Below are positions 1 through 37,720 of a DNA stretch of 37,720 nt, piece after piece. A program made the translations under genes and the position numbers. The stretch is from a virus. The stretch covers positions 1-37,720 of IMG/VR virus record IMGVR_UViG_3300028601_000010. The stretch is one strand, 5' to 3'. The notes beneath the pieces are model-generated. The model made no database searches. It was not told the DNA's origin and saw only the letters and a program-made list of their open reading frames with translations. Position 1 is the stretch's first letter; every line of letters begins with the position of its first letter.

Positions 1-127
1 CTTATTACGGGAGTTCCCATCGTCTGCATTTCAGATACAACTTCTTTCAGGTGTTCTTCATCGTAGTACCCATGTAATAGTATTACTGTTGTCATTTTGT
101 CTTTCCTCTACTTACTATATTAGCTTC
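1..127. repeat. Terminal direct repeat copy 1, identical to 37594..37720. Most simply a circular-assembly overlap; unique genome length 37593 bp.
   Basis: Bases 1-127 match bases 37594-37720 base for base. The repeat cuts through the 5' end of minus-strand CDS 37353..37688, so the window wraps. Confidence 0.95.
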
Positions 128-129
128 TA

Positions 130-143
130 AAGTATATATACTT
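130..143 (-). promoter_or_regulatory. BRE/TATA-like promoter palindrome AAGTATATATACTT driving 37353..37688 across the circular junction
   Basis: 14-nt palindrome with an ATAGATA flank on the upstream side, followed by a conserved GAAGCTAATATAGTAAG block and an AGGAAA SD before the ATG. Confidence 0.7.
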
Positions 144-157
144 ATCTATCCCAATGG

Positions 158-181
158 ATTAAATTATAAGATTTTAATATT
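158..181. promoter_or_regulatory. 24-nt site attaaattataagattttaatatt: A/T arms around an asymmetric 9-nt core TTATAAGAT, inside IR-L
   Basis: Identical 24-mer at 20344..20367 in the same absolute orientation, although all flanking IR sequence is inverted. Confidence 0.8.
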
Positions 182-312
182 TGTTTATAATGAGGAGTTA
201 GAAAATATTCGGGGCTCAAATTGAGCCGCTTTTGTCTATCTACCACTATACTACTAGTATATTATATATATATATATTATTATATATAATAATAGTAGTG
301 TGTATTACTGTG

Positions 313-354
313 TGGGTAGGGGTGGTCAAACCCACCCCCGCCCAGCCCCCGGAG
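313..354. other. GC island in IR-L with four C-runs on the plus strand (331..350), giving G-quadruplex or i-motif potential, plus hairpin GGGGTGG/CCACCCC
   Basis: The sequence gggtaggggtggtcaaacccacccccgcccagcccccgg is embedded in otherwise extremely AT-rich sequence. It lies next to a 38-nt pure A/T tract (257..294). Confidence 0.7.
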
Positions 355-529
355 ACGAGTGTCGTAAAAAGTTATAATTTAATATTTTTGGAAAAAATTG
401 GAGACCATACTAAACCCCAATCACCGAAAGGAGCCCAGTATGAACCCGCCTTATTTTATAATACCTTGTTGTTTTTTATTATTTTTAATTATAAATAAAT
501 AATTTAAGAGGTGGTTGTGAAAAGTGGAA

Positions 530-2360: not shown

Positions 2361-2852
2361 TCATAACAGCGGATCCCGGCCGGCTCGTTTTGTGAGCCAC
2401 ATGTAGTATTTCGTCTGCCAGAACGGGATATCGACCGGCGCACCGAACACACGCCAGATGTGCCATAAGATACGCTCTAACGGTGTCTGCCAGTCTGCGG
2501 CGAGGATAACCATATCATCTGCCGGCTGACCCACTGCATGAAGCAGTTCGTGCCAGATGCGGAGCGTGATAATCTCGTCTGTATCCTCATCTCTCACTCT
2601 GATACTCACCCGCATATGATACGCCCCACCGAGGGCCAATGCGGGAATATCGTCATCGAAAATATACACATCACCCTCGTGTATCGGCATAGGAAACCCG
2701 TTCCAGATCGGGTCGGATGCGTCGCCGATTGATACGGTGGGAGTGTCAATGCGGATGTGAGAGATATCAAAAAAAAGGGGCAAATTTGGGAGGAGTTTGT
2801 AGACTCGCCAATAAACGTTTTCGTTTTGACAGTAGACGCTAAAGGCCGGCAT
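2361..2852 (-). CDS. Hypothetical protein with an HExxH motif (possible zinc metallopeptidase)
   Basis: The motif WHELLHAVGQPAD. The gene is clear but the function rests on this motif alone. Confidence 0.5.
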   Translation of the reverse strand: MPAFSVYCQNENVYWRVYKLLPNLPLFFDISHIRIDTPTVSIGDASDPIWNGFPMPIHEGDVYIFDDDIPALALGGAYHMRVSIRVRDEDTDEIITLRIWHELLHAVGQPADDMVILAADWQTPLERILWHIWRVFGAPVDIPFWQTKYYMWLTKRAGRDPLL

Positions 2853-2855
2853 GGT

Positions 2856-3359
2856 TTAGTTGGATATTGCCGTTATCGGCGCACCTGCCGCGCGGTTGCA
2901 TGCCGCATAGACACTATTGGCCGACATTAAAACGAACATGCCATACGAGATAAATGCGCTATCGCATGTAGTATCCACGTCGCCATCGTGATCTTCTACG
3001 ATGATGCCATACTCCACAATCCCCTTGCTTTCCATAAGGTCAATGGTTGCCCGGAGTCCGCGCTCATTAACTGCCGCGCCGCCAGCAACAAGCTGTTTGT
3101 AAAGCTGGGCATAAATCTCGTCCGACATTTTCCATGTCCGCGCCGGAATATTGTTCAGCTGTTTCGTCTGGGATTCGGTCTGCGGGACTTCGGGGTCAAA
3201 TAAATCAACGATTGTATTATACCCGTCAAGGGCAACAGACAGTGCGCCGGACAGATCTTTGTTCTTATACTTCTCAATCACTGCGGCGACAACGCCCAAA
3301 ACAGTGGTAATAATAGTAATAACCAACCCGATTGAGGTTGGGTCAAAAAGTGTTTCCAT
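2856..3359 (-). CDS. Membrane-anchored protein of unknown function
   Basis: N-terminal hydrophobic helix IGLVITIITTVLGVVAAVI. The gene is tightly packed with its neighbours. Confidence 0.7.
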   Translation of the reverse strand: METLFDPTSIGLVITIITTVLGVVAAVIEKYKNKDLSGALSVALDGYNTIVDLFDPEVPQTESQTKQLNNIPARTWKMSDEIYAQLYKQLVAGGAAVNERGLRATIDLMESKGIVEYGIIVEDHDGDVDTTCDSAFISYGMFVLMSANSVYAACNRAAGAPITAISN

Positions 3360-3425
3360 AGAGGTATATTACCTCCATGAATGCTTAATAGTTTCGTCCG
3401 TGGATGACGATACTGTCACCTCCTA

Positions 3426-4811
3426 TCATTTTTTGATCTGTTTATGCTCCGACGTCCTTACCACTCCTTTTGAGTCTGTCAGGGGTATCTGATAGACGTT
3501 CAGGGGGCGGCCACGTTTCGAGTTGTCTTGTACACATTCAACCCCACAATCTTCCAGATAATCGCTTATCAACTTCCAATCGTTGGAGTTTACATTAATA
3601 CCGCTATTCTTGATCTCTTCCCTCGTGGCTGACAGGTTGCCGTTGACATGCAACAGATTGTATATTGCTTCTCCCTGCCGGACTATCCGCGGGGGATATG
3701 TCTGGCGTTCCGCCTGATATTTTTTCATGACCTTGTTACTCTTCCCGGCAATTTCAAGAGCGTCTGACATGGCTTCCTGAGTAATAATAACCCCGTTGTT
3801 TCGGATGCTTGATACAGTCTGCATGCTCTTATACGGCTGGTTCAGGAGAGATAACACAATAGCCAGCCGTTTCGCTTTGTCTAAATGACGGGTATGTAAG
3901 GTCTTTTCTATGATATCCTCACACTCCAAGGTCAGTTTCTGCTGATTCCGGTCTAATTCCTTGAGGTTGAGCTTTCCGGGTTCCAGACTGCATTTAACCG
4001 GTTCTTTAAGCGGGGCGTTGTAATCGCTTAACTTCACATACTCCGCGCCTTCCATCCGGCTGACATAGTTTCCGCCTAAAAATAACACCTCGGCGATACG
4101 ATCAAATACACGATATGGAAGTCGGGTGTCCTTAAGCTGATAATCGACCACTGCTTCGGGGATGTAAAAAAACATATACCGGGACATATCCCCTGACTCA
4201 AAGTTCTCTTCGCAGAGGATTTCCGACATCTGGCTGTGTGTTCCAAAGCCCAAGAGGGTCATTGCCGGGCGGATAATTATTTGTTCCCGGTCGGTATCAT
4301 TATTGGGAGTGTTCCGTTTGTCCTTCGAGTATTTTTTGGGTCTCATCGACATATCAGACAGGGTGTATGCTTTTGTCAGCGCGACAAGAGCCGTTTTCCC
4401 GATGATATCAGACGCGAGATTGGCCAGCGTTCTTCCAAACTCATCTACACACATAATGGCTTGTGGTTGGGATACAATCGCCGAATGCACGCCGGCATCT
4501 GAGGAAAAAGACGACCCGTTCATAATCAGTCCCGGGCAGTGAATATCATCACTCCATCGCGTGATCATTTTTTCAAGGTCAGCTTTTCCGCTTCCAGACG
4601 CGCCAAACACCACAACATACACATTTGAGTATGACCCATCAAATACAAAATTCCGTGAACATATCCCCGCCCCAAACACAAGAGCCGACAGATACGCACT
4701 GATACGGTGTGGGCGATATGCGTTCTCAAGAAAATTATTCGCGAGATCTGCAAGGACGCCTCTAAGGACTGGCAACCCCTCCAAAATAAACTCGTCATTC
4801 TGGCTTGCCAT
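3426..4811 (-). CDS. P-loop NTPase, DUF3987-like putative replicative helicase
   Basis: Walker A VVFGASGSGKA and Walker B-like IMCVDEFG. GGAGA SD. Size and replication-module context fit. Confidence 0.7.
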   Translation of the reverse strand: MASQNDEFILEGLPVLRGVLADLANNFLENAYRPHRISAYLSALVFGAGICSRNFVFDGSYSNVYVVVFGASGSGKADLEKMITRWSDDIHCPGLIMNGSSFSSDAGVHSAIVSQPQAIMCVDEFGRTLANLASDIIGKTALVALTKAYTLSDMSMRPKKYSKDKRNTPNNDTDREQIIIRPAMTLLGFGTHSQMSEILCEENFESGDMSRYMFFYIPEAVVDYQLKDTRLPYRVFDRIAEVLFLGGNYVSRMEGAEYVKLSDYNAPLKEPVKCSLEPGKLNLKELDRNQQKLTLECEDIIEKTLHTRHLDKAKRLAIVLSLLNQPYKSMQTVSSIRNNGVIITQEAMSDALEIAGKSNKVMKKYQAERQTYPPRIVRQGEAIYNLLHVNGNLSATREEIKNSGINVNSNDWKLISDYLEDCGVECVQDNSKRGRPLNVYQIPLTDSKGVVRTSEHKQIKK

Positions 4812-5822: not shown

Positions 5823-5836
5823 AAGTATACATACTT
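5823..5836 (-). promoter_or_regulatory. Promoter palindrome variant AAGTATACATACTT for the leaderless methyltransferase gene
   Basis: Exactly 19 nt between the palindrome and the ATG at 5803, placing the palindrome centre at -26. No SD is present. Confidence 0.7.
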
Positions 5837-6054
5837 AATCAAAAGAGTTGAGGGTTTGGGGCAGAAGAAAGACCCTTGCGATGTATGGCAACGTGTTATT
5901 AGGTATCCTTAAGGTGTGTGGTATCTATGGCAAAGTGGAGATGTCCCGTTATACGTGTCATTATGGATAGGAGGTGGTGTAAGATGTTCCCCATTTCCTC
6001 AACAAATGATAATTGGTGTGGGATATATTAATCCTTTCGGTAAAAAAAGAGGGA

Positions 6055-10524: not shown

Positions 10525-10538
10525 AAGTATATATACTT
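10525..10538 (-). promoter_or_regulatory. Promoter palindrome for the Sak4 to helicase operon
   Basis: AAATAGATAAGTATATATACTT read on the minus strand, upstream of the 5'UTR and the AGGAAA SD of the ATG at 10456. Confidence 0.7.
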
Positions 10539-10584
10539 ATCTATTTGTAATGAGGTGTAAAAAAAGGGGTTGTTAGGACGTGTA

Positions 10585-10849: not shown

Positions 10850-10863
10850 AAGTATATATACTT
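10850..10863 (-). promoter_or_regulatory. Promoter palindrome for 10585..10803
   Basis: Same 22-nt core, followed by a conserved 5'UTR with the TGTAG/CTACA hairpin and a GGAGAAACTAAA-ATG. Confidence 0.7.
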
Positions 10864-10885
10864 ATCTATTTGTAATGCAACAAAT

Positions 10886-10899
10886 AAGTATATATACTT
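10886..10899 (+). promoter_or_regulatory. Promoter palindrome for leaderless 10919..11149
   Basis: Exactly 19 nt to the ATG at 10919. It sits back to back with the 10850 promoter. Confidence 0.7.
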
Positions 10900-10918
10900 A
10901 TACTTACAATTAATACAT

Positions 10919-11149
10919 ATGTCAACCGAAGTCATTTGCCCATACTGCGGGCATGTATGGATACGTAAAACCAATACGAAAAGCAGAGCATGCCCCAAAT
11001 GCCACCGAACGGCTGTCCCGAGAACACCGCGGGAGATGTTGACGTGTAACCGGTGCGGGAATGTTTGGGAACCGAGAGCATCGGGTAAGCTCCCCGGCAC
11101 GTGCCCCCAGTGTAAATCGCCATACTGGAACAAGGAGCGGGTGCGGTGA
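10919..11149 (+). CDS. Double zinc-ribbon protein (76 aa), leaderless
   Basis: CPYC..CPKC and CNRC..CPQC. The ATG lies 19 nt after the promoter palindrome. The longer ORF 10766..11149 would run through two promoters. Confidence 0.7.
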   Translation: MSTEVICPYCGHVWIRKTNTKSRACPKCHRTAVPRTPREMLTCNRCGNVWEPRASGKLPGTCPQCKSPYWNKERVR

Positions 11150-11337
11150 CAGCCGCCCAATCCGAAGAATCACAAACGAACATGAAAAGAGCGTATGCAT
11201 GTTATACATGCGCATACGCTATATTACCGGATGAATATTGGTGGAACCCGGCGCACATGGTCACATGCACAAAGCCCCGGACACCAACGATCATTCCCGC
11301 TAAGAAAAAATGCCAGAAATATACTACCATTCCATAA
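11146..11337 (+). CDS. Hypothetical protein (GTG start overlapping the upstream stop); weak call
   Basis: GTGA overlap with 11149. No clear SD. An alternative start is the ATG at 11182. Confidence 0.35.
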   Translation: MTAAQSEESQTNMKRAYACYTCAYAILPDEYWWNPAHMVTCTKPRTPTIIPAKKKCQKYTTIP

Positions 11338-11384
11338 ATCGTATGTTAGTTTATAGATTTTGAAATAATAAAAAAAAGAAAAAA

Positions 11385-11672
11385 TTAATCGGTGTAAACG
11401 GTTATTGGTCTGCCGTTTACAATGTTACCGATATCATCGGTTTCATACCATTCAGGGTTGGTTCCGTTCTGGTAGGTTTCAACCTCATTGATCCAGTAGT
11501 TTTTCAGGTCGTCGTAATCAGCTTGACTGCATACAATGTTCCCGTCCTCGTCTCTGCCGGGGTGGTCGTGTGGAAATCCGACTTCCATATCCCAGAAACA
11601 ATCGCATCCGGTGTAGTCGTCTATAATTCTGATTTCTTTTACTTCTCCCGTTTCAATGATTTTAAAGTTCAT
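11385..11672 (-). CDS. Acidic early protein (95 aa), unknown function
   Basis: Has a promoter, a 5'UTR hairpin and an SD. The protein is rich in D/E/W/Y. Confidence 0.7.
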   Translation of the reverse strand: MNFKIIETGEVKEIRIIDDYTGCDCFWDMEVGFPHDHPGRDEDGNIVCSQADYDDLKNYWINEVETYQNGTNPEWYETDDIGNIVNGRPITVYTD

Positions 11673-11717
11673 TTTAGTTTCTCCTGTAGTCTTACTACAA
11701 TAATCTATTAGACTATA

Positions 11718-11731
11718 AAGTATATATACTT
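11718..11731 (-). promoter_or_regulatory. Promoter palindrome for 11385..11672
   Basis: Forms the left arm of the 11673..11839 palindrome. Confidence 0.7.
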
Positions 11732-11775
11732 ATCTATTTAATCACGATAGATAAGTTCAGTAATATTAAATAGAT

Positions 11776-11789
11776 AAGTATATATACTT
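11776..11789 (+). promoter_or_regulatory. Promoter palindrome for the plus-strand operon starting at 11840
   Basis: Forms the right arm of the 11673..11839 palindrome. Confidence 0.7.
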
Positions 11790-11839
11790 TCGAGTCTAAT
11801 TAATTATTGTAGTAAGATAAACTACAGGAGAAACAAAAA

Positions 11840-12046
11840 ATGAACTTCAGACAAGAATCACCAGCAAACAAATACCTTGAGAGCATCCACACAGCACAGT
11901 CCGAATTAGCAAGGCGCCACATCTCCAGAGATGAATTTATAGACACCCTCGGACAGATCTACCGGGTGGCCATAATGGATTCAGACATCTCAGAAGTTGA
12001 GTTCGGATTTATCAGAGCAATTTACGAAGTCGCAAGGGTTGAGTAA
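11840..12046 (+). CDS. Hypothetical early protein (68 aa)
   Basis: Has a promoter, a 5'UTR hairpin and an SD. It is the first gene of the plus arm. Confidence 0.7.
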   Translation: MNFRQESPANKYLESIHTAQSELARRHISRDEFIDTLGQIYRVAIMDSDISEVEFGFIRAIYEVARVE

Positions 12047-12048
12047 TA

Positions 12049-12885
12049 ATGGCAACAAAACTTACCACAAACGATAAGATTGTAGACGAACTGATAAAAT
12101 CCATCGAGTCTACTGAAACACTCCCGTGGCATGCGGGGTGGGTGTCAGGAGGACTCCCAATCAATTTTACGACTGGGAGACGTTATAACGGCATCAACAT
12201 ACTTATGCTGTGGTCTCGTGGATTCACCCACTCTAAGTTTGCCACATACAAACAAATCAAAAACAAGGGAGGGCAAGTGAAGAAGGGGGAAAAGGGAACG
12301 CCTGTTATCTATTATAACATCTCTGAGAGGATTACAACAGATCCAAAAACAGGGTTGGACAAGATAACTCATATCCCGTTCGCTAAACTTTCATATGCGT
12401 TTAACATCTCTCAGACCGAGGGAATCATGGAAGATGCGGTTGAAACAGGCGAACATGCAACAGCCGAACAGTTCATTAGTTCAATCCCGGCAACTATCAT
12501 TCATGGGTACGATCCTTGTTATGTTCCAAAGAGCGATGAGATACGGGTACCACTGAGAAGCGACGTGGAAACAGAAGAGAGATATTACAGTGTTCTGTTT
12601 CACGAGCTTATACACTGGACCGGAGCGGAAGGGCGTATGGACAGGGATTTGACTCTCCACCACGAAAACAAAGACAAATACTCGTTCGAAGAACTCGTGG
12701 CAGAAATCGGAAGTGCGTTTTTACTGGCCGAGTTTGGAATGAAACCGTGTGAAGAGCAGAACGCGGCATATGTCAAAGGCTGGGCAGAAAGAATAAACGC
12801 TGATAAAAACATGATTATCAAAGCCGCGTCCCAAGCATCCAAAGCAGTTGAGTATTTACTCAGCTTATCGAACACCTCTTTTTAA
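12049..12885 (+). CDS. ardC: ArdC-like antirestriction protein (ssDNA-binding N-terminal domain + zincin metalloprotease domain)
   Basis: The motifs LPWHAGW..GLPINFTTGRRYNGINILML..KGGQVKKGEKGTPVIYY, then HELIHWTG and EELVAEIGSAFL. Confidence 0.9.
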   Translation: MATKLTTNDKIVDELIKSIESTETLPWHAGWVSGGLPINFTTGRRYNGINILMLWSRGFTHSKFATYKQIKNKGGQVKKGEKGTPVIYYNISERITTDPKTGLDKITHIPFAKLSYAFNISQTEGIMEDAVETGEHATAEQFISSIPATIIHGYDPCYVPKSDEIRVPLRSDVETEERYYSVLFHELIHWTGAEGRMDRDLTLHHENKDKYSFEELVAEIGSAFLLAEFGMKPCEEQNAAYVKGWAERINADKNMIIKAASQASKAVEYLLSLSNTSF

Positions 12886-12936
12886 TATATCTTATAATCA
12901 ATAGATTAATGTATATATAAAATAACATAATATTAT

Positions 12937-13596
12937 ATGTTTTCTTCTAAAACAGTTAAACGTTTTCTGCCGGAAAAATATCTGATGATATTATCGGCAT
13001 TTTTTGTAGTATCGTTAGTCATTAGTAATGTTATCGCGGCAAAGGTTGTTCAGATCGGTTGGTTTGAAATCCCGGCCGCAGTATTGGCTTATCCTATTAC
13101 TTTTTTAATGACAGATATTATAAGTGAAATCTTCGGAAAACATTACGCTAAAACCCTTGTTAAGATCGGGTTTGCTGTACAGTTGTTCTCACTTGTCCTT
13201 ATCTATCTCGCAATCTATCTCCCACCTACTATATACATGGTAGAGTTTGATAGCGTATTCCAAGCTACATTAGGTTCCTCTGCCCGGTTTGTAATTGCAT
13301 CATTAATTGCGTATTTAGTTGCACAAACCATAGACGTACATATGTTCCATGCTCTTAAGGCAAGGTTCACGCCCAAATGGATCAGGAATAATGGTAGTAC
13401 TATGATAAGCCAATTGGCAGATACTTCTATATTTATTACTATTGCATTTATCGGAGTAGTGCCAAACATCGGGATTATGATTGTATCTCAGTATGTAGTG
13501 AAATTCTGTTTTGCCGCTCTGGATACTCCTATATTCTACTTCATCACTCGAAGAATGGAGAGAAAACTCAAAGAGGTTAATTATGAAAATAGTTGA
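12937..13596 (+). CDS. yhhQ: YhhQ/DUF165 queuosine-precursor (preQ0/preQ1) transporter
   Basis: Multi-pass hydrophobic protein with the signature VISNVIAAKV..AYPITFLMTDIISEIFGK. Confidence 0.85.
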   Translation: MFSSKTVKRFLPEKYLMILSAFFVVSLVISNVIAAKVVQIGWFEIPAAVLAYPITFLMTDIISEIFGKHYAKTLVKIGFAVQLFSLVLIYLAIYLPPTIYMVEFDSVFQATLGSSARFVIASLIAYLVAQTIDVHMFHALKARFTPKWIRNNGSTMISQLADTSIFITIAFIGVVPNIGIMIVSQYVVKFCFAALDTPIFYFITRRMERKLKEVNYENS

Positions 13597-14092
13597 TATT
13601 CCAATTGAAAAACTTAATTTTTACGAAAAGAATCCTAGAAAAAACGATGAATCAGTTTCATTCATCGCAAATTCTATTTCCCGATTCGGGTTTAAAGTGC
13701 CTATTTCAGTAGATAAGAACAATATAATTATCTGCGGTCATACTAGAGTAAAGGCGGCAATTGAACTTGGATTAAAAACCGTTCCTTGTGTTATTGAATC
13801 GGAGATGACAGATAAGGAAATAAAGGCATTTAGATTAATCGAAAACAAGTCCCACGAATTATCTTTCTGGGATAAATCACTCTTAGAGAGTGAGATGGAT
13901 GACCTTATGGGAGAGTTTGAGTTTGAAGATTTTGGGTTCCTTGATATTGGTGAAACTTTAACTGATAAAGATATAGATATGTTCTTTAAAGAGAATGCAG
14001 TACCCAAACCAGACCAAGTATCAGATGAACATATCGAAGAGAAACCAACTACTATTATCTGCCCCCATTGTGGAGGAGTTGTTGATATTTGA
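13583..14092 (+). CDS. ParB-like nuclease-domain protein (candidate DpdB analogue) with a C-terminal CxxC
   Basis: Start at the ATG at 13583 with an AAGAGG SD. Motifs are NPRKND and ICGHTRVKAAIELGLKTVP. It overlaps both neighbours. Confidence 0.8.
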   Translation: MKIVDIPIEKLNFYEKNPRKNDESVSFIANSISRFGFKVPISVDKNNIIICGHTRVKAAIELGLKTVPCVIESEMTDKEIKAFRLIENKSHELSFWDKSLLESEMDDLMGEFEFEDFGFLDIGETLTDKDIDMFFKENAVPKPDQVSDEHIEEKPTTIICPHCGGVVDI

Positions 14093-14844
14093 GGGTTCAT
14101 CTCGCCGGTATAGGAGTTTATCAAAGACATATGTGGGAGTCAAAACCACCTTATACCTTATATAATTTTTATAGCCCTACCAAAGGGGATATTAAATATT
14201 CACATTCTAATCACTGTAAAGGATATTTAGTGGATTCTGGGGCATTCAGTTTTATGAACTCATCCAATATTAAAGGTGAGGTTAATTTTGATCAGTATGT
14301 GAAAGACTATGCTAAATTCTTAGTTGAGAATAAAGTTAAAAGATATTTTGAATTGGATATTGACTCTATAGTTGGTCTTAAACAAGTTGAGAAATATCGT
14401 ACATATTTAGAGAATGAAACTGGGATCCAATCAATACCTGTATTTCATAAATCCCGTGGTAAAGATTATTTCTTACAGATGATTGATGAATATGATTATG
14501 TATCTATAGGTGGAATTGTAACAAAGGAAATTAAGAGGTCTGAATTACCTCTTTTGAAATGGTTTATTGATATGGCTCATAAAAATAACACTCAGATACA
14601 TGGGTTAGGATTAACTAATGTTCCTATGTTGAAGAAACTAAATTTTGACTCGGTAGATTCTACATCATGGGTGTGTGGGAGGTATGGTACTATAATGAGA
14701 TTTAATCCTGTAACACATATATTTGATAAATTTAATTTTTCTGATGTATGTCCTAACACACGAATGCAAAACTCAGATGAACTTGTTCCCATAAATATTA
14801 AGGAATGGGTTAAGTTTCAATATTGGGCGGAAAACAACCTATGA
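14089..14844 (+). CDS. dpdA: DpdA-like 7-deazaguanine DNA transglycosylase (TGT superfamily)
   Basis: TTG start in a TTGA overlap, with GGAGGAG 11 nt upstream. Landmarks are LVDSGAFSF (compare TGT DSGGFQ), IHGLGLT and NFDSVDSTSW. Confidence 0.8.
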   Translation: MRVHLAGIGVYQRHMWESKPPYTLYNFYSPTKGDIKYSHSNHCKGYLVDSGAFSFMNSSNIKGEVNFDQYVKDYAKFLVENKVKRYFELDIDSIVGLKQVEKYRTYLENETGIQSIPVFHKSRGKDYFLQMIDEYDYVSIGGIVTKEIKRSELPLLKWFIDMAHKNNTQIHGLGLTNVPMLKKLNFDSVDSTSWVCGRYGTIMRFNPVTHIFDKFNFSDVCPNTRMQNSDELVPINIKEWVKFQYWAENNL

Positions 14845-14930
14845 TATTTGAGAGATAATCATATATATGATAACACTTATATTTATGCATATCTTATTAT
14901 TGAATAAACAGAATAATATTTAGGTAAACC

Positions 14931-15338
14931 ATGACTAAACCAAAGTTACCAGAGGACCTCCAGAAGAGAGGGCGCAAACCCATAGAGATAGATTATGACA
15001 TGGCAGAGAAATACTCATCTATTATGTGTACTCAGTCTGAAATCGCTTCTTTATTGGGCGTATCGTTATCAACATTGGAACATGACCCAGAATTTTTGCG
15101 GATTCATAAAAAAGGAATGGAGTCTGGCAAGGCATCTTTAAGGAGAATGCAATACGGTGCGGCCAAGAAAGGAAATGCCACTATGCTGATATGGTTAGGT
15201 AAACAATATTTAGGTCAGAATGACAAACAGGAAATAACAGGATTAATGGGTATCCAGTTTGTTGATAATGTGCCGAAAGACGCGACCAAACCAAACAGTA
15301 TGGCTGATAATTTAGATGAAGTTGAAGAAATATATTAA
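14931..15338 (+). CDS. Terminase small subunit
   Basis: HTH-like segment QSEIASLLGVSLSTLE. It lies directly upstream of TerL and overlaps it. The size is typical. Confidence 0.7.
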   Translation: MTKPKLPEDLQKRGRKPIEIDYDMAEKYSSIMCTQSEIASLLGVSLSTLEHDPEFLRIHKKGMESGKASLRRMQYGAAKKGNATMLIWLGKQYLGQNDKQEITGLMGIQFVDNVPKDATKPNSMADNLDEVEEIY

Positions 15339-17556
15339 AGATCTTTTAACCCCCGCTTTTTATCATGCGTGGTTAGCACTGACCGACCCGAAATATACGT
15401 ATTATGTGTTTAAGGGCGGTAGGAACTCCGGGAAAAGCACATTTGTATCTATGTGTATCATCATCCTGATGATGAAGTTCCCCGTGAATACTCTCGTCGT
15501 TCGTAAGGTGGCCAATACTCTCAGCGAGTCTGTTTATGAACAGCTGATAGAAGCCATTGAACTTTTAGGGGTTACGGACTACTGGAAACGGTCGAAATCC
15601 CCACTCGGCCTTACCTATCTGCCCACCGGAAACCGGATCATATTCCGGGGGGCTGATGACCCGATGAAGCTCAAGTCAATCAAAACCCATCGGTATCCTA
15701 TCGCTATTCTGTGGATTGAAGAGGTCACCGAGTTCAAGAACGAGGATGAAGTATCGACTATCGTAAACTCCGTTATCCGTGCTGGATTACCTGACGGTCT
15801 GAAATATCATATATTTTACACATACAACCCGCCGAGATCTCTTAGTTCGTGGGTCAATATCAAATACAATACCTCGCTTATATCCAATGATACGTATGTG
15901 CATCATTCGACGGTCAATGACAATCCATACCTTAGCAAACAGCTTAAAACCACGCTGATAGAGCTTAAAGCGACGAATCCCGAACGGTATAGATGGGAGT
16001 TCCTTGGCGAGGCTGTCGGGTCCGGAGTTATGCCGTTTGATAATCTCGTGTTCCGCGAGATCACAGACGAGGAGTTACGGGCCTTCGATAATTATCGGTG
16101 TGGTATTGACTGGGGATATGCCAACGATGCGTTTGCGTATGTCAGGTGGCATTACGACCGAACACGCCGGAAAATCTATGCAGTAGATGAACGGTATGGG
16201 GTTAGGCTGACTGACCGGTCTAATGCAGAATGGCTCAAAGCTAAAGGGTATGCGAACGACCATACGTATATCAAGGCGGACTCATCAGAACCAAAAACAA
16301 TTGACCTATATCAAAACGATTACAATGTAACTAATATGCTGGCGGCGACTAAAGGACCCGGCAGTGTTGAGTCAGGAGAAAAATGGTTGAACGATGAGAT
16401 ACTGGAGATTGTTATCGACGAGAGACGGACCCCGAATATAGGGCGGGAGTTTAGGACGATCGACTATGCTCGGACGAAGGATGGGACGATATTGAGCCGG
16501 TTAGTTGACTTTGACAACCATTGTATTGCAGAGGGGACACTGATTACAACCGACGAAGGACAAAGACCAATCGAAACGGTATGTATTGGTGATAAGGTCT
16601 TAACAAGAGATGGATTCAAACGAGTATCAAAGGTTTGGGATAATGGGGTTAAGGACGTTGTTTCGGTTAAATTATCTAATGGTTATTCATTGACAGCAAC
16701 CCACGACCATAAACTATTTGTTAACTCGGAAAGGTATATACCCATAGACACCATACGTTATACTGATGAAGTATGTTGCCTAAAAAAATCGTTTATGAAG
16801 GGATCCCTTACCGATTATCTGAAAATGGATATTATAGATCGTCCCGCTGTAGTAAAAACAATTTCACGACCAGATACTTACACCGTGCGATATGGGAAAC
16901 AGAAACCAATTCTAAGGTACCTGAAGGATATCATATTCACCACAAAAACGAGGATAAATCTAATAATGACATATCCAATCTTGAATGTATTAAAGGGTCA
17001 GAACATCTATCGTTTCACTCAAAGGGGTTTCATAAAAATAATCCAGAGTTTGCGAAAGCAAATTTGGATATCCAAAGACCACTCACCTTGGAATGGCATA
17101 GGTCAGAAGCCGGTCATTTGTGGCATACAGAACATGCTAAAACAAGTCTCGGGAGTAAAGAACCAACCAAACATATATGTGAACAATGCGGGAGAGAGTA
17201 TTTCGCGATCAATACCGGAAATAATAGATTTTGTTCAAACGCGTGCAAAGCAAAATACAGACGCGAATCTGGAGTTGATAACGTCACACGGATATGTAAG
17301 GAATGCGGCAAAGAGTTTGTATCATCCAGATTTAGCGACATTGAATGTTGTAGTCACGGGTGCGCAAATCGTATCGGTGCAAGACGCCGGAAAGATGCAA
17401 GTTTATGATTTAACTGTTGAAGATTCTCACGAATATTTTGCCAATGGTATCTTAGTCCACAATTGTATCGACGCCACACGTTACGCTTTTGAGGATGATA
17501 TAGGCGTTGGAACTTACGAGGATTATGGGTTTATGTCGGGCGGTGGACTGATATAA
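15316..17556 (+). CDS. Terminase large subunit (PBSX/Terminase_3-like) interrupted by a 314-aa intein
   Basis: Walker A KGGRNSGKS. The nuclease motif is split as DFDNH / CIDATRYAF. The extein totals 432 aa. Confidence 0.9.
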   Translation: MKLKKYIKDLLTPAFYHAWLALTDPKYTYYVFKGGRNSGKSTFVSMCIIILMMKFPVNTLVVRKVANTLSESVYEQLIEAIELLGVTDYWKRSKSPLGLTYLPTGNRIIFRGADDPMKLKSIKTHRYPIAILWIEEVTEFKNEDEVSTIVNSVIRAGLPDGLKYHIFYTYNPPRSLSSWVNIKYNTSLISNDTYVHHSTVNDNPYLSKQLKTTLIELKATNPERYRWEFLGEAVGSGVMPFDNLVFREITDEELRAFDNYRCGIDWGYANDAFAYVRWHYDRTRRKIYAVDERYGVRLTDRSNAEWLKAKGYANDHTYIKADSSEPKTIDLYQNDYNVTNMLAATKGPGSVESGEKWLNDEILEIVIDERRTPNIGREFRTIDYARTKDGTILSRLVDFDNHCIAEGTLITTDEGQRPIETVCIGDKVLTRDGFKRVSKVWDNGVKDVVSVKLSNGYSLTATHDHKLFVNSERYIPIDTIRYTDEVCCLKKSFMKGSLTDYLKMDIIDRPAVVKTISRPDTYTVRYGKQKPILRYLKDIIFTTKTRINLIMTYPILNVLKGQNIYRFTQRGFIKIIQSLRKQIWISKDHSPWNGIGQKPVICGIQNMLKQVSGVKNQPNIYVNNAGESISRSIPEIIDFVQTRAKQNTDANLELITSHGYVRNAAKSLYHPDLATLNVVVTGAQIVSVQDAGKMQVYDLTVEDSHEYFANGILVHNCIDATRYAFEDDIGVGTYEDYGFMSGGGLI
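16522..17463 (+). mobile_element. Intein in the TerL nuclease active-site region
   Basis: Block A CIAEGTLI, block B TATHDHKLF, blocks F/G VYDLTVEDSHEYFANGILVHN, followed by the +1 Cys (17464). The region is visibly more AT-rich than the exteins. Confidence 0.9.
16773..17408 (+). CDS. Free-standing HNH homing endonuclease, encoded entirely inside the intein but in the +2 frame relative to TerL
   Basis: Motifs are YLHRAIWE..GYHIHHKNEDKSNNDISNLE..EH, plus two CxxCG(K/R)E(F/Y)..FCS/CCS..C fingers. Two in-frame stops (16764, 16767) precede its ATG. Confidence 0.85.
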   Translation: MLPKKIVYEGIPYRLSENGYYRSSRCSKNNFTTRYLHRAIWETETNSKVPEGYHIHHKNEDKSNNDISNLECIKGSEHLSFHSKGFHKNNPEFAKANLDIQRPLTLEWHRSEAGHLWHTEHAKTSLGSKEPTKHICEQCGREYFAINTGNNRFCSNACKAKYRRESGVDNVTRICKECGKEFVSSRFSDIECCSHGCANRIGARRRKDASL

Positions 17557-19019: not shown

Positions 19020-19751
19020 GTGGTATCGAAACAGCAACAGACCCAAATAGATAAGCTCATGCGATTACGACAGACCGCTATGGCTACCATTTACGCGCAG
19101 GCGGCACGAGAGATGTCTATGGTTGCATCGCAAGAAGCGTTGTCAGGGTTGGCAAAGACGGGATACACGGTCGCAAGTGCACAAGGTATCACAGATAAGA
19201 TAGTATCCGATTACACCCGTAATATCCTCAATGGCGGCACAGACTGTATAGAGCGTGTTCTGGCGCTTCAACCCAACGGGATGTATAAAGCAACCACCCG
19301 ACAGACGTTCGTGCCTTGGCTGGCTGATATGAGCGTCAGAGACACATCTAACATTATCACCCTGATAGGCGACGCGGAAAAGGCGGGTGTTCACCCTCGA
19401 CAGATAGCCAAAGAGTTAGAGGGATACTTCGAAGGAACTCGACACAACGCTATGACTGCCGCCCGGACAGAGGCGAGTAAGATCCGTAATGATGCACGGT
19501 CTGCATCGTTTGAAGAGTCTGGAGTCCAGTATGTTGAGTATGTGACAGCGGGAGACGAACTTGTCAGACCTGAACATGCGATGCGGAACGGGAAGATATA
19601 CGAACATAGGAGCGCTCCAATGCTCGGGGAGTTCCAATGCAGGTGCTTGCTAGTCCCAGCGGATTATAAGGTCAATCGGAAAGGGGCCAAAGTGACCGAA
19701 TCCGAGGCCGAGTATCTGACTAAAGATCAAGCAGGGATGGTGTCAGCATGA
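19020..19751 (+). CDS. Minor head protein, Mu F / SPP1 gp7 family
   Basis: The hallmark motif DELVRPEHAMRNGKIYE. GTG start. Confidence 0.8.
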   Translation: MVSKQQQTQIDKLMRLRQTAMATIYAQAAREMSMVASQEALSGLAKTGYTVASAQGITDKIVSDYTRNILNGGTDCIERVLALQPNGMYKATTRQTFVPWLADMSVRDTSNIITLIGDAEKAGVHPRQIAKELEGYFEGTRHNAMTAARTEASKIRNDARSASFEESGVQYVEYVTAGDELVRPEHAMRNGKIYEHRSAPMLGEFQCRCLLVPADYKVNRKGAKVTESEAEYLTKDQAGMVSA

Positions 19752-20026
19752 GCCGACTTCCAGCGCTTACACGTGACCAGAGGCAGACGATTGCCGAGAA
19801 CCTATACCTATTCCCCGCTGATATTATGCGTATGTCTGGGATGGAAAACGTGTCAAAAGGACAGATAATCGCTGAACAGAAGCGGATTAGGGAGAGAGAC
19901 AACACCCCTGACTCCGAGTATCTGTATTATATAATAACAAATTATATCGAAAAGCACGGATTACGGGCTATTTACTCAAATGGCGTCTTTGGCTGGCTTG
20001 AATCACTCAAACCACCCAAAAAATAA
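19748..20026 (+). CDS. Hypothetical protein (92 aa)
   Basis: ATGA overlap with the upstream gene. It is followed by the IR-R hairpins and T-runs. Confidence 0.6.
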   Translation: MSRLPALTRDQRQTIAENLYLFPADIMRMSGMENVSKGQIIAEQKRIRERDNTPDSEYLYYIITNYIEKHGLRAIYSNGVFGWLESLKPPKK

Positions 20027-20168
20027 TTTATTATTTTATATACTTATCCCATTTATTTATAACGCCTATTATAAAATAAGGCGAGCTGTTTCCGAGCTCC
20101 GTTTGCCAAACGGGCTTTTGTATGGGTGTAGATTTTTTTCAAAAATATTAAATTCTTAAAAAACAATA

Positions 20169-20210
20169 CCCCCTGTCCGGGGGCCCGTCCACCCGCCCCC
20201 CTCCACCCCC
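20169..20210. other. GC island in IR-R with C-runs on the plus strand (20184..20210), next to a 37-nt pure A/T tract (20228..20264)
   Basis: The sequence ccccctgtccgggggcccgtccacccgcccccctccaccccc. The C-rich strand is the plus strand in both IR copies. Confidence 0.7.
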
Positions 20211-20343
20211 ACAGTAATACACTACTCTAATATTATATATAATAATATATATATATATATAATACTAGTAGTATAGAGTTAGATTGGTAAATCGCGCCCA
20301 AATTCGGCTCCGAATATTTTCTAACCCTCTATTGTAAACAAAT

Positions 20344-20367
20344 ATTAAATTATAAGATTTTAATATT
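20344..20367. promoter_or_regulatory. Second copy of the 24-nt 9-9-9 site. The full arms here are AATATTAAA / TTTAATATT.
   Basis: Exact 24-nt identity with 158..181 in direct orientation. The perfect 9-bp inverted arms span 20341..20367. Confidence 0.8.
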
Positions 20368-20377
20368 ATAGATAGAT

Positions 20378-20391
20378 AAGTATATATATTT
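20378..20391 (+). promoter_or_regulatory. Promoter palindrome variant AAGTATATATATTT for 20426..20650 and the micro-ORF operon
   Basis: Part of IR-R. It has a GATAGATA upstream flank and the same GAAGCTAATATAGTAAGTAGAGGAAAGACAAA-ATG leader as IR-L. Confidence 0.7.
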
Positions 20392-20425
20392 TGGAAGCTA
20401 ATATAGTAAGTAGAGGAAAGACAAA

Positions 20426-20650
20426 ATGAAATCAAACGAGCTTAAAAACCTGAGAAGAAATTTAGCAAGACTTTCTAAGAATTGTAAGAGGATCACCGAG
20501 GACCCGACCTTTAATCAGGAGTTGAAAGAAAAAATTATCCGGTCTACAATCATCGGTAAAAACGCGGTAATGATAGAAGGCCTTAGAATCCTCAACATAG
20601 AGGAAACAACCGACCTTAGAAAATACTGCGAAAAACTTAATTTTTATTAA
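20426..20650 (+). CDS. Hypothetical protein (74 aa), first gene after IR-R
   Basis: Shares its promoter, leader and SD with 37353..37688. A T-run follows immediately after the stop. Confidence 0.65.
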   Translation: MKSNELKNLRRNLARLSKNCKRITEDPTFNQELKEKIIRSTIIGKNAVMIEGLRILNIEETTDLRKYCEKLNFY

Positions 20651-21668: not shown

Positions 21669-21842
21669 ATGACTGACACTATCGACAAAAAGGAACTTAT
21701 CTTAAAGATAATCCTACTCAGGGAAAATATAGAAGAGTGCGCCGAAGAAGTAGACGGGCCGCACTGGAGAGCATACAAATCATCATATTATAGAGGGTAT
21801 CTGGATGCTGTATCCGATATCTTAAACAAGATATACGAATAA
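21669..21842 (+). CDS. Small protein (57 aa) with a DTIDKKEL N-terminus
   Basis: Internal Met30 of ORF 21582..21842, with a purine-rich SD. It shares a 25-nt exact repeat (21674-21698 = 21436-21460) with the previous gene. Confidence 0.5.
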   Translation: MTDTIDKKELILKIILLRENIEECAEEVDGPHWRAYKSSYYRGYLDAVSDILNKIYE

Positions 21843-21846
21843 TAAT

Positions 21847-21988
21847 ATCTCGAAGAATGAATTAATCTCTTAGATGTAAAAACCTCGAATAAAAACCTCG
21901 AAGAATAAATTCATCTCTTAGATACAAGAACCTCGAATAAAAACCTCGAAGAATAAAATCTATCTCTTAGATCTAAAAACCTCGAATG
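21847..21988 (+). repeat. Iteron array B: reverse complement of array A. It has 5 full copies of AA(A/G)AACCTCGAA(T/G), 3 copies of ATCTCTTAGAT, and a ~49-nt higher-order unit.
   Basis: Copies at 21878-21890, 21891-21903, 21926-21938, 21939-21951 and 21975-21987. ATCTCTTAGAT at 21865, 21913 and 21962. The array lies immediately upstream of the structural operon start at 22063. Confidence 0.9.
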
Positions 21989-33866: not shown

Positions 33867-34003
33867 TGGCAGAATTAAGCCCCGCATTAGAGCGCATGGC
33901 TGGATTATACGTTGAACAGATACGGAAAGGAGTTAAGTCAATTGACGAAGTTCCATCCATGTTACGGGCACGTGTTGAAGAGTTGCTCATAAATGACCCT
34001 TGA
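33866..34003 (+). CDS. Small helical protein (45 aa), absent from the ORF track
   Basis: Hand translation gives MAELSPALERMAGLYVEQIRKGVKSIDEVPSMLRARVEELLINDP. TAATG overlap. It resembles the small proteins common in tail-fibre regions of siphoviruses. Confidence 0.5.
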   Translation: MAELSPALERMAGLYVEQIRKGVKSIDEVPSMLRARVEELLINDP

Positions 34004-34775
34004 TTACGATACGGATAGATATGATGCTGGTGGATCTTCCACCACACCAACCCGTAAACTACCCCCATCACACCTTCTTGATTATGATACGGGTAGTTAT
34101 GATGCTGGCGGATTTTCTACCACACCTCCCCGCGTATTACCTGCATCATACCTAATCACCGCGCCGGAAATACGGATTTGTGACGAGGATTATATCCCGC
34201 GTATTGTCCTTGATGGATACAAAAACCTGACTTATACGGAGCGACACCGGAACCGCGATTCATGGAGTTTTGAAGTATCCCGGCATTCAGTCTATGCGCA
34301 ATACCTTATCAAAGGGCGGATTATACATTACGTTACAGGGTCGTCTGTGTATGCGCTGATAATCAAACAGATAGACGCGACTAGGGACACTATCACGGTG
34401 TCGGGTAATGAATACGCAGACGATTTATTATCCGCGAGAATTGCACTTGTAAACGTCCAAGACGGGGTCGGTGCGGACGAGATACAGGACTCCGCAGAAA
34501 CTGCGTTCCGCCATTACGTCAATGGAAATATCATCGAAGCCACAGACACATACAGACGCGACCCGTTTCTGACTCTGGAACCTGTTGATTACGGACGAGG
34601 CGAAACTGTGACGATATCGGCAAGGTTTGAAAATCTTTTAGATCTTTGTGAAACGATCGGGTCGCTGGGTAGTATCGGATGGCGGTCTGTGGTTGTAGAC
34701 GATGACACGAAACCATGGGGATGGAAAATAGTTATGTCGGTTGTTGAAGGGAACGATTTGGGAGAAGTCGTATGA
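33993..34775 (+). CDS. Baseplate/tail-tip protein with a tandem 26-aa N-terminal duplication
   Basis: 78-nt tandem units at 33999..34076 and 34077..34154, encoding LDYDT(D/G).YDAGG.STTP.R.LP.S(H/Y)L. Confidence 0.65.
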   Translation: MTLDYDTDRYDAGGSSTTPTRKLPPSHLLDYDTGSYDAGGFSTTPPRVLPASYLITAPEIRICDEDYIPRIVLDGYKNLTYTERHRNRDSWSFEVSRHSVYAQYLIKGRIIHYVTGSSVYALIIKQIDATRDTITVSGNEYADDLLSARIALVNVQDGVGADEIQDSAETAFRHYVNGNIIEATDTYRRDPFLTLEPVDYGRGETVTISARFENLLDLCETIGSLGSIGWRSVVVDDDTKPWGWKIVMSVVEGNDLGEVV

Positions 34776-37352: not shown

Positions 37353-37688
37353 TTACTCATCTTCAAACACAATCATTCCGCCGCGGTTAGCTGACGTAGA
37401 CGCGGTGCTTATGACTGATTCAAAGGTGTCATCATCCACTAAAATCCCATCGCACACATCATTTACAACTTCTGTGATATCCTTAAACTCAACCTCTTCA
37501 AACACTGGGACTAATCCAAGTTGCTTAGCGGCTCTGATTCTGTGGCAACCTTCAAGGGCTAAAAAAGCCCCAAAACATTCACAGTAAAACCCTCTTATTA
37601 CGGGAGTTCCCATCGTCTGCATTTCAGATACAACTTCTTTCAGGTGTTCTTCATCGTAGTACCCATGTAATAGTATTACTGTTGTCAT
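37353..37688 (-). CDS. Small ParB/Srx-like domain protein (111 aa), first gene after IR-L
   Basis: The motif ALEGCHRIRAAKQLGL. Its 5' end is duplicated at 1..95 by the circular overlap. Confidence 0.65.
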   Translation of the reverse strand: MTTVILLHGYYDEEHLKEVVSEMQTMGTPVIRGFYCECFGAFLALEGCHRIRAAKQLGLVPVFEEVEFKDITEVVNDVCDGILVDDDTFESVISTASTSANRGGMIVFEDE

Positions 37689-37720
37689 TTTGTCTTTCCT
37701 CTACTTACTATATTAGCTTC
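37594..37720. repeat. Terminal direct repeat copy 2, identical to 1..127
   Basis: Exact 127-nt identity with the window start. Confidence 0.95.

Follow-up and report, generated by a model that had tools for sequence, protein, structure and literature searches.

Composite cassettes that unite a terminator with a promoter have been described in T4-like phages, where they are known as promoter-early stem-loop (PeSL) elements (PMC2839356, PMC4122927). PeSL is the closest described kind of element to a non-coding cassette of approximately 430 bp that is present twice, in opposite orientations, in IMGVR_UViG_3300028601_000010, an uncultivated, siphovirus-like tailed virus as judged from its predicted proteins. 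The whole stretch of 37,720 nucleotides, referred to here as the window, was analyzed, and its two copies of the cassette were designated module A (approximately positions 93 to 520) and module B (approximately 20005 to 20428). Like PeSL, the module is a non-coding unit joining an operon end to a predicted restart promoter, is repeated within one genome, and flanks spots of gene insertion or replacement between close relatives, thus forming a homology anchor for modular shuffling. PeSL is small and bacterial, consisting of a sigma-70 early promoter and a stem-loop, whereas the module spans approximately 430 bp and follows an archaeal logic, with TATA box and B recognition element (BRE) sequences together with oligo-T tracts. 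Furthermore, the full module is present only twice, just its promoter-leader part of approximately 55 to 75 nt being multicopy (n = 9), and it contains a 225-bp structured core without a PeSL counterpart.

Paired control elements are also found in lambdoid phages, which carry left and right versions in nutL/nutR and OL/OR. As in these phages, homologous non-coding control sequences occur once per divergently transcribed arm of the genome, resulting in copies that are mutually inverted and co-directional with local transcription. Unlike the lambdoid elements, to which they bear no sequence or structural resemblance, the modules are located 17 to 19.5 kb apart at operon ends and not beside divergent promoters, and no N-like or CI-like factor was identified. 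The origin oriS of herpes simplex virus, an A/T palindrome present in two inverted copies, and the paired single-strand initiation signals ssiA and ssiB of RSF1010 offer a further comparison, in architecture only: an A/T-rich palindrome lies between inverted repeats near promoters, in two opposite copies. In contrast to those systems, no initiator-binding repeats, nearby initiator gene, or skew signal were found for the modules.

Modules A and B are real, diverged copies of one cassette that have been kept by selection at the two main operon boundaries of the genome. A BLAST search with positions 93-520 against the window returned 20428-20067 on the opposite strand, with 75.7% identity over 374 nt (E value, 1.1e-66), and a repeat search resolved three collinear inverted arms at 87-150/20371-20434 (94%), 158-325/20197-20364 (79%), and 376-463/20067-20154 (74%). 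The original prediction, which was made from the letters of the sequence, had described 93..500 and 20021..20428 as inverted copies sharing roughly two-thirds identity; both statements were borne out, as the two copies are 65.7% identical over 437 columns of a 15-copy alignment, with the similarity extending slightly beyond the ends first given, to approximately 520 and 20005. The mosaic of identical and differing blocks that it had reported was also recovered. Positions 93-127 are the exact reverse complement of 20394-20428, a leader of 35 nt that includes the start codon, and several other blocks of 13 to 25 nt are identical, whereas the GC islands of A and B are unalignable (29 to 43% identity). 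Positions 1-127 of the window are identical to 37594-37720, and therefore the unit closes as a circle of 37,593 bp, divided by the modules into the two arms of approximately 19.5 and 17.3 kb that had been proposed. The gene map likewise agrees with the placement of each copy between the 3' end of one gene and the start of the next, co-directional with both: module A lies between a gene end at 530 and a minus-strand gene start at 95, and module B between a gene end at 20026 and a plus-strand gene start at 20426. The latter position is inside the morphogenesis cluster, between head-morphogenesis genes.

The two modules share one succession of features. At one end of module A are the start codon (95-93) and 5' leader of the minus-strand gene 37353-37688, including a GAGG Shine-Dalgarno-like motif (93..129), and, on the same strand at 130..149, a predicted promoter whose palindromic core, AAGTATATATACTT, has AAAG/AAG on both sides in a BRE-TATA-BRE-like arrangement and a conserved upstream flank, ATAGAT. 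The corresponding plus-strand segment of module B (20372..20428) holds the predicted promoter (core, 20378-20391), the leader, and the ATG of gene 20426-20650. Adjacent to these is the core of approximately 225 bp, enclosed by a 12- to 13-nt repeat whose left and right inverted copies (IR-L and IR-R), with approximately 200 nt between them, are located at 158-170 and 371-383 in module A and at 20364-20352 and 20159-20147 in module B. IR-L is part of a near-palindrome of 21 to 24 nt with an asymmetric center (158..181 and 20344..20367), and this center is flipped between A and B; thus, 158-181 and 20344-20367 form a direct repeat, an identical 24-mer on the plus strand of both modules. Further into the core of module A, the invariant block GTTAGAAAATATTCG (197-211), a stem-loop at 213-227 that had been noted originally and was confirmed, and the 3' partner block TCTATCTACC (235-244) correspond to predicted helices 2 to 4 (197..244), followed at 246..312 by an A/T-rich palindrome with a base that covaries between lineages and by the invariant block GTGTATTACTGTG (300-312). 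In module B, the A/T palindrome, partner block (20278-20287), stem-loop (20294-20310), and invariant block (20311-20325) occupy 20220..20325. The pure A/T tracts within the palindromes, at 258-294 and 20228-20264, are 37 nt each and the two longest of the genome, and each is adjoined by a GC island, in accordance with the earlier description. The island of module A (314..363) contains the hairpin GGGGTGG-TCAAAC-CCACCCC and a small hairpin at 354-363, while that of module B contains a hairpin and a run of minus-strand G tracts, followed by an invariant block at 20210-20222 (20169..20222 overall). Next to IR-R of module A is the invariant block ATTTTTGGAAAAAAT (371..398 together with IR-R), whose T5 tract on the plus strand and T6 tract on the minus (sense) strand could make it an oligo-T terminator acting in both directions; in module B, the stretch 20132..20159 comprises IR-R (20147-20159) and an invariant oligo-T block, in which T7 is on the plus (sense) strand and T5 on the minus. 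The remainder is the 3' zone of the upstream operon, which in module A (415..529, minus strand) contains small hairpins along with the conserved block GCCTTATTTTATAATA (448-463) and has an A/T-rich tail reaching the stop codon of gene 530-835. In module B (20005..20131, plus strand), gene 19748-20026 extends into this zone with its last codons and stop; the opposite strand carries a degenerate promoter-like motif (20032-20048), and a conserved block (20067-20082) precedes hairpins b (20083-20099) and a (20099-20114), after which comes TTTT.

Two minor features of the modules were recorded. The 21-nt near-palindrome ATTAAATTATAAGATTTTAAT (158-178 and 20344-20364) is on the plus strand in both modules despite their inverted surroundings, with no exception in orientation among either the A-type or the B-type copies; a simple hairpin-loop flip or a strand-specific signal could account for this. 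As read from the sequence, the B-type GC islands (20169-20210 on the minus strand, opposite to local transcription) carry at least four tracts of three or more G residues with short spacers, a G-quadruplex-type motif that A-type islands lack. The A-type GC hairpin was also considered as a tRNA fragment or phage attachment site (attP), given the likeness of its TCAAAC loop to a T-loop. This was rejected, as the loop is one base short, B-type copies do not have it, ARAGORN identified no tRNA or transfer-messenger RNA, and no integrase was found.

The sole annotated match of the major capsid candidate is a Caudoviricetes genome assigned to Methanomicrobiales, and relatives of the Mu-F head protein were identified in an uncultured Methanomicrobiales metagenome-assembled genome (MAG), a 304-kb contig of Methanocorpusculum parvum, and a Methanomethylophilaceae MAG. 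As relatives are found in Methanomicrobiales genomes, the virus was taken as a Methanomicrobiales-type virus of methanogenic archaea, and its non-coding signals were read by archaeal rules, that is, as TATA/BRE promoters and oligo-T terminators. The motif GATAAGTATATATACTT gave 17 matches on both strands, compared to 0.21 expected, and these form nine elements, each correctly oriented for a start codon 28 to 59 nt downstream; the promoter core, AAGTATATATACTT, is fully palindromic, with AAG on either side. The nine promoter-leader units are located at 130-146, 2168-2184, 5823-5839, 10525-10541, 10850-10866, 10886-10902, 11718-11734, 11773-11789, and 20375-20391, and many then carry a leader hairpin, TGTAG...CTACA, and GGAG. 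No element was found within the structural block from 22 to 36.5 kb. At the opposite end of the module, the oligo-T block TTTAATATTTTTG(G/A)AAAAAAT was near-invariant across the 11 full-length copies aligned, and its T tracts, T6 to T8 in the sense direction and T5 in the other, could terminate transcription both ways. At 36.47 kb, where two operons converge, their ends are likewise followed by tracts of T8 and T6. The earlier proposal that the module ends act as transcription signals agrees with the recurrence of the TATA-type motif and with T6 to T8 on the sense strand as at other operon ends, and the assignment of the ends as a predicted terminator and promoter is well supported by these motifs.

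A second repeat family follows the same logic, being inverted, co-directional with transcription, and upstream of promoters. It consists of tandem arrays at 2207-2308 and 21836-21987, with two to three units of 48 to 53 nt containing AAACCTCGAA and the near-palindrome ATCTCTTAGAT. The former array is just upstream of the promoter at 2168-2181, and the latter precedes the scaffold and late genes at 22063. Both are probably regulator-binding arrays.

To recover further copies of the module, a two-block pattern scan was combined with protein-anchored look-ups, giving 17 copies. Six were A-type (the window, L003, L081, L089, L099, and a partial copy in L090) and 11 were B-type (the window, whose copy is identical in L100 and L101, L020, L021, L093 to L096, L106, L107, and partial copies in L083 and L092); the source samples of several were labeled as fermentation metagenomes, and contigs identical to module B occur in samples ERZ27247324 and SRR8449815. 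All 17 are in the same two contexts. A protein query for the A site of a 34-kb relative recovered L003 alone, and the window is the only case in which A and B are shown from one genome. None of the 11 full-length copies aligned was an A/B chimera, and no third copy was found in the genome using nhmmer. Exact 16- to 17-mer searches of IMG/VR returned mostly chance matches along with three contigs harboring the module, and 7 of 19 metagenome pattern matches were due to chance. In the annotated phage collection, a megablast search with 25 kb gave no match, and a distant blastn search with the module gave merely 33-nt chance matches to enterobacterial phages. The assemblies of L105 and L106 were error prone, with broken open reading frames (ORFs), and an inverted duplication of the AAA_24 region in L105 was not used as evidence of rearrangement.

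Outside this set the core was not recovered. Viruses at 64% Mu-F identity, including L077, have an unrelated 313-nt spacer, L077 repeats only its promoter-leader, L080 (60% identity) has only the promoter in an 87-nt spacer, and a 30-kb relative with the same gene layout (48% identity) has an unrelated, unduplicated spacer of 335 nt. An nhmmer search of L077 to L080, L102 to L104, and others with a core profile gave no match. The promoter-leader unit is kept in relatives at 60 to 64% protein identity, in which the sequence elsewhere is different. As the core is missing from relatives at 48 to 64% protein identity, the paired module is specific to a narrow clade, the members of which share at least approximately 82% nucleotide identity. 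Relatives that lack the central blocks while keeping the ends had been named as a finding that would speak against a function for the center; distant relatives do lack them (with L080 retaining the promoter only, and L077 and the 30-kb relative having unrelated spacers), while close relatives keep every block.

Within the clade, relatives that are 88 to 95% identical have had the genes immediately behind both promoters replaced, with differences in L003, L020, L093, L094, and L099 despite module identities of 88 to 97%. A homologue (76%) of an A-side gene is found behind a B-type module (93%) in L093. In L096 the module is 96% identical and the neighboring gene 82%, indicating that the module moves between lineages by recombination. 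A centromere serving the small gene downstream of module A was considered and set aside, as this gene has no Pfam match, and close relatives retaining the module have another gene in its place. In L107, an HNH endonuclease gene (2730-3509) is inserted between the Mu-F gene and the gene for a 92-amino-acid protein, just upstream of module B.

Neutral divergence was estimated from 107 four-fold sites of the adjacent Mu-F gene, at which the window and L021 are 58% identical. By comparison, identity is 83% (130/156; P ~ 1e-11) in the core once the GC island is left out and 85% (P ~ 2e-8) in the segment from IR-R to the operon end, while the GC island (66%) does not differ significantly from the four-fold sites. 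On this comparison of sequences, the core is under purifying selection. The original prediction had attributed the blockwise conservation to selection without homogenization by gene conversion; the first part held, and the second was contradicted in part. In three patches, CAAAAG, TTAGAAAGTATT, and the base of the A/T palindrome, lineage-specific variants are common to A- and B-type copies of different genomes, and the leader that A and B have in common in the window differs from the leaders of most close relatives; thus, short-tract exchange between the copies does occur.

Covariation within the core was examined across the copies. IR-L and IR-R are complementary at 12 of 13 positions in most copies, and A- and B-type copies differ at two positions per arm in an exactly compensatory manner (A-T to C-G and A-T to T-A); L095 has a third compensatory event in this pair. 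Compensatory changes were found in four separate helices, one of which has arms approximately 200 nt apart. The base of the A/T palindrome, which is approximately 57 nt long, changes in concert across lineages, and the position of the GC hairpin is kept though its sequence has been replaced. Over the full predicted structure, the share of cells that pair is 92.4%, and 14 pairs have changes on both sides. The score for covariation was 0.213 compared to 0.130 in shuffled alignments, none of 500 of which reached it, and was at most 0.086 with slid partners. The folding z scores against shuffled sequences were -5.7 for A and -3.95 for B, with -6.05 (A) and -3.79 (B) for the sense strand, both strands folding far better than the shuffles. 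Together with the purifying selection, the covarying inverted repeats uphold the earlier view that the central region, approximately 225 bp, is more than a spacer. A compensatory change across approximately 200 nt is hard to explain by protein sites on duplex DNA and points to a single-stranded form, for which an RNA is the simplest candidate.

A near-symmetric promoter of this kind is known from Pyrococcus furiosus, in which symmetric BRE-TATA-BRE promoters give sense and antisense starts approximately 49 to 50 bp apart, as confirmed in vitro (PMC6640164). The promoters of the window resemble these in their near-symmetric TATA element with BRE-like purines on both sides, and the predicted starts are approximately 50 bp apart. 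The antisense products in P. furiosus are regarded mostly as nonfunctional noise, whereas the antisense side here is a conserved, covarying unit of 225 bp with a T5 stop. Our preferred reading, to which we give a tentative probability of roughly 40%, is that the module is a duplicated terminator-core-promoter cassette whose core is divergently transcribed as a structured RNA of approximately 225 nt. The upstream operon would be ended by the small hairpins and the invariant oligo-T block; the core, closed by the inverted repeats and containing the GC hairpin, the A/T palindrome of approximately 57 nt, and the nested stem-loop, would lie in between; and transcription would restart from the standard, nearly symmetric BRE-TATA-BRE promoter and leader into a short, highly exchangeable accessory-gene cassette. 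The symmetric TATA element would also fire backwards, with the divergent start falling approximately 25 nt from its center, on IR-L, and the first conserved T5 of the divergent strand, directly after IR-R, could mark the transcript end. The symmetric TATA element, the start on IR-L, and the T5 tract after IR-R are the grounds for proposing an RNA of approximately 225 nt, which would have paired 5' and 3' ends. It might act as a small viral regulatory RNA, or as a buffered, terminated outlet keeping divergent (antisense) transcription out of the upstream operon. The cassette would double as a homology anchor for swapping downstream genes.

Several observations weigh against this reading, beginning with the divergent RNA itself, which we infer purely from sequence. 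Relative to shuffles, both strands fold equally well, and the asymmetry between G-U and A-C pairs is mixed, with the core favoring the antisense strand and the hairpin nearest the operon end favoring the sense strand. The structure conservation index within each type is only 0.64 to 0.73 for sequences that are approximately 90% identical, and Rfam 15 gave no match to the module at gathering thresholds or at E values up to 5. Most B-type copies have T6 before IR-R, which could end the RNA ahead of the terminal helix, and functional RNAs seldom contain a 37-nt hairpin of pure A/U. At the other seven promoters, the symmetric core is shared but no such unit lies behind it. Finally, the mosaic history of L096 means that part of the apparent conservation reflects recent exchange and not selection.

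The same core could alternatively be a replication origin or single-strand priming signal, in which the A/T palindrome would unwind, the inverted repeats would bind the DUF3987 protein as initiator, and the GC island would limit melting, with one copy per strand serving the two strands or arms. It is common for viral and plasmid origins to have an A/T palindrome between inverted sites, together with a GC-rich segment and a neighboring promoter. The location of the genome's two longest pure A/T tracts, 37 nt each, beside GC islands is consistent with this, as are the purifying selection on the core, the nested palindromes kept by compensatory change with a long-range stem that needs a single-stranded state, and the presence of other replication initiators in relatives without the core (D5_N in L077 and Prim-Pol in the 30-kb relative). 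The GC-skew profile that had been proposed as a check showed no turn at either module (0.3 and 20.2 kb), although transcription and gene orientation may mask a replication signal; the cumulative skew turns only near 11.7 and 36.5 kb, which are strand switches, the gene arms being divergent from approximately 11.75 kb and convergent at approximately 36.47 kb. Forks from A or B into the 19.5-kb arm would meet transcription head-on, module B is located among head-morphogenesis genes, far from replication genes, and the gene for the DUF3987 helicase-like protein is approximately 3 kb from A and approximately 15 kb from B. The modules have nested inverted repeats only and no tandem iterons, and no match beyond chance was found to a mini-origin recognition box (mini-ORB) consensus, from which a virus-specific site may differ. 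No Orc1/Cdc6, MCM, or Rep domain was identified among the 40 predicted proteins scanned, a set that excludes some small ORFs. A protein-bound GC island would be expected to be conserved between A and B, yet the islands are unalignable, and two origins would be unusual in a virus of 37.6 kb. The origin, recombination, or packaging role first suggested was thus supported by none of the tests run (skew, domains, mini-ORB, and chimeras), and an origin is considered unlikely. A start or priming element that acts in single-stranded or transcript-primed form, once per strand for the two arms, would join the RNA and origin readings, with the divergent transcript as primer, and appears quite unlikely. 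If the core is instead a double-stranded control region for two co-regulated promoters, without an RNA, its blocks (three AATATT-centered motifs, GTTAGA...TCTAAC, and GTGTATTACTGTG) would be operators for a viral or host factor or a chromatin protein. The best-conserved A/B blocks are indeed short motifs, some of them palindromic, both modules are directly upstream of promoters with an identical leader in this genome, and the virus reuses upstream arrays at other promoters. This leaves unexplained the compensatory changes in four helices, one spanning approximately 200 nt, and the GC hairpin kept under a replaced sequence, and no DNA-binding domain was found in the small neighboring proteins; such a control region also seems unlikely.

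The remaining explanations assign no function to the core or a purely recombinational one. The narrow distribution of the core, the patches shared by A and B, the faster movement of the L096 module between lineages relative to its neighboring gene, the weak resemblance of the right end of A to the last codons of the gene upstream of B, and a 21-nt palindrome that looks inserted into a standard promoter flank would all fit a neutral or selfish leftover, namely a hairpin-rich segment or palindromic insertion that was copied a single time from the B to the A site and has been maintained by recombination and gene conversion. For L021, where module and flanks have equal overall divergence, the 83% identity of the core compared to 58% at neutral sites is at odds with neutrality, the compensatory changes argue for constraint, and neither a target-site duplication nor a third or empty site was found among the 17 copies. 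With respect to miniature inverted-repeat transposable elements (MITEs), the module has terminal inverted repeats (IR-L and IR-R, 12 to 13 nt), but no target-site duplication, as the flanks differ (AATGG/ATTTT and ATAAT/ATTTT), and no copies at unrelated sites were present among the 17, host genomes having been scanned with a protein query only and not with the cassette. A leftover is therefore judged very unlikely. Crossover between the modules could also invert the 19.5-kb arm and yield two genome isomers in which genes remain co-directional with the modules, and we infer that a crossover inside the core would preserve this transcription logic. The L093 junction of a B-type module with a homologue of the gene that follows A in the window could be read in this way, but with the gene at only 76% and the module at 93% identity, gene shuffling fits better than a recent inversion. 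Eleven spanning contigs (L003, L020, L083, L089, L090, L092, L094, L095, L099, L100, and L107) show the arrangement of the window, 0 of 11 full-length copies are chimeric, no recombinase domain was found among the proteins scanned, and the longest identical stretch of the window pair is 35 nt. Arm inversion is accordingly regarded as highly improbable.

To our knowledge, little has been described of how transcription and replication are organized in tailed viruses of methanogens. The genome layout proposed here is testable, with one promoter-leader family used nine times, oligo-T stops, and two cassettes where long operons meet exchangeable accessory genes. If the core is transcribed, as in the preferred reading, the virus would encode a structured RNA initiated on the "wrong" side of a symmetric archaeal promoter, and bidirectional initiation, usually dismissed as noise, would have been put to use. 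Were the core an origin, it would provide a first handle on replication in this virus group, and with a single-stranded or transcript-primed origin, an origin architecture would be on record for the first time in a tailed virus of methanogens. Regardless of function, the cassette is a clade marker in biogas and fermentation metagenomes and explains assembly breaks at the module positions.

Two other non-coding loci of the window were noted. At the divergence of the arms, where cumulative GC skew is lowest, 11690-11817 is a palindrome with 53-nt arms (92% complementary) made of two back-to-back promoter-leader units. Judged by skew and gene orientation, this palindrome is a candidate origin no worse than the modules. 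The plus-strand promoter at 10886-10899 is followed by approximately 480 nt (10900-11385) that contain no credible ORF, are conserved at 78 to 88% in L021, L047, and L105, and match no Rfam family; this segment may be a non-coding RNA gene.

The identity of the virus as a tailed virus follows from domain matches to a large terminase interrupted by an intein, a Mu-F/SPP1 gp7-type head protein, a tape-measure protein, and an SPP1 Dit-type tail protein. Domain matches also identified an AAA_24 ATPase, DUF669, a PD-(D/E)XK nuclease, an SNF2/DEAD helicase, an N6/N4 methylase, and the DUF3987 helicase-like protein (3426-4811). The large terminase gene (15316-17556) encodes Hint and Intein_splicing domains, and the insert (approximately 16790-17349) is missing from the 80 to 91% identical terminase genes of L020, L021, L105, and L107. 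A block at approximately 11400-15220 encodes ArdC-like, Vut_1 (YhhQ-type transporter), and ParB_N proteins and a 251-amino-acid protein; it is absent from L045 and L105, in which 11390 is joined directly to approximately 15225-15320. A 77-nt tandem duplication with 81% identity was identified at 33999-34153, at the start of gene 33993-34775, where it encodes the repeated peptide LDYDT..YDAGG.STTP.

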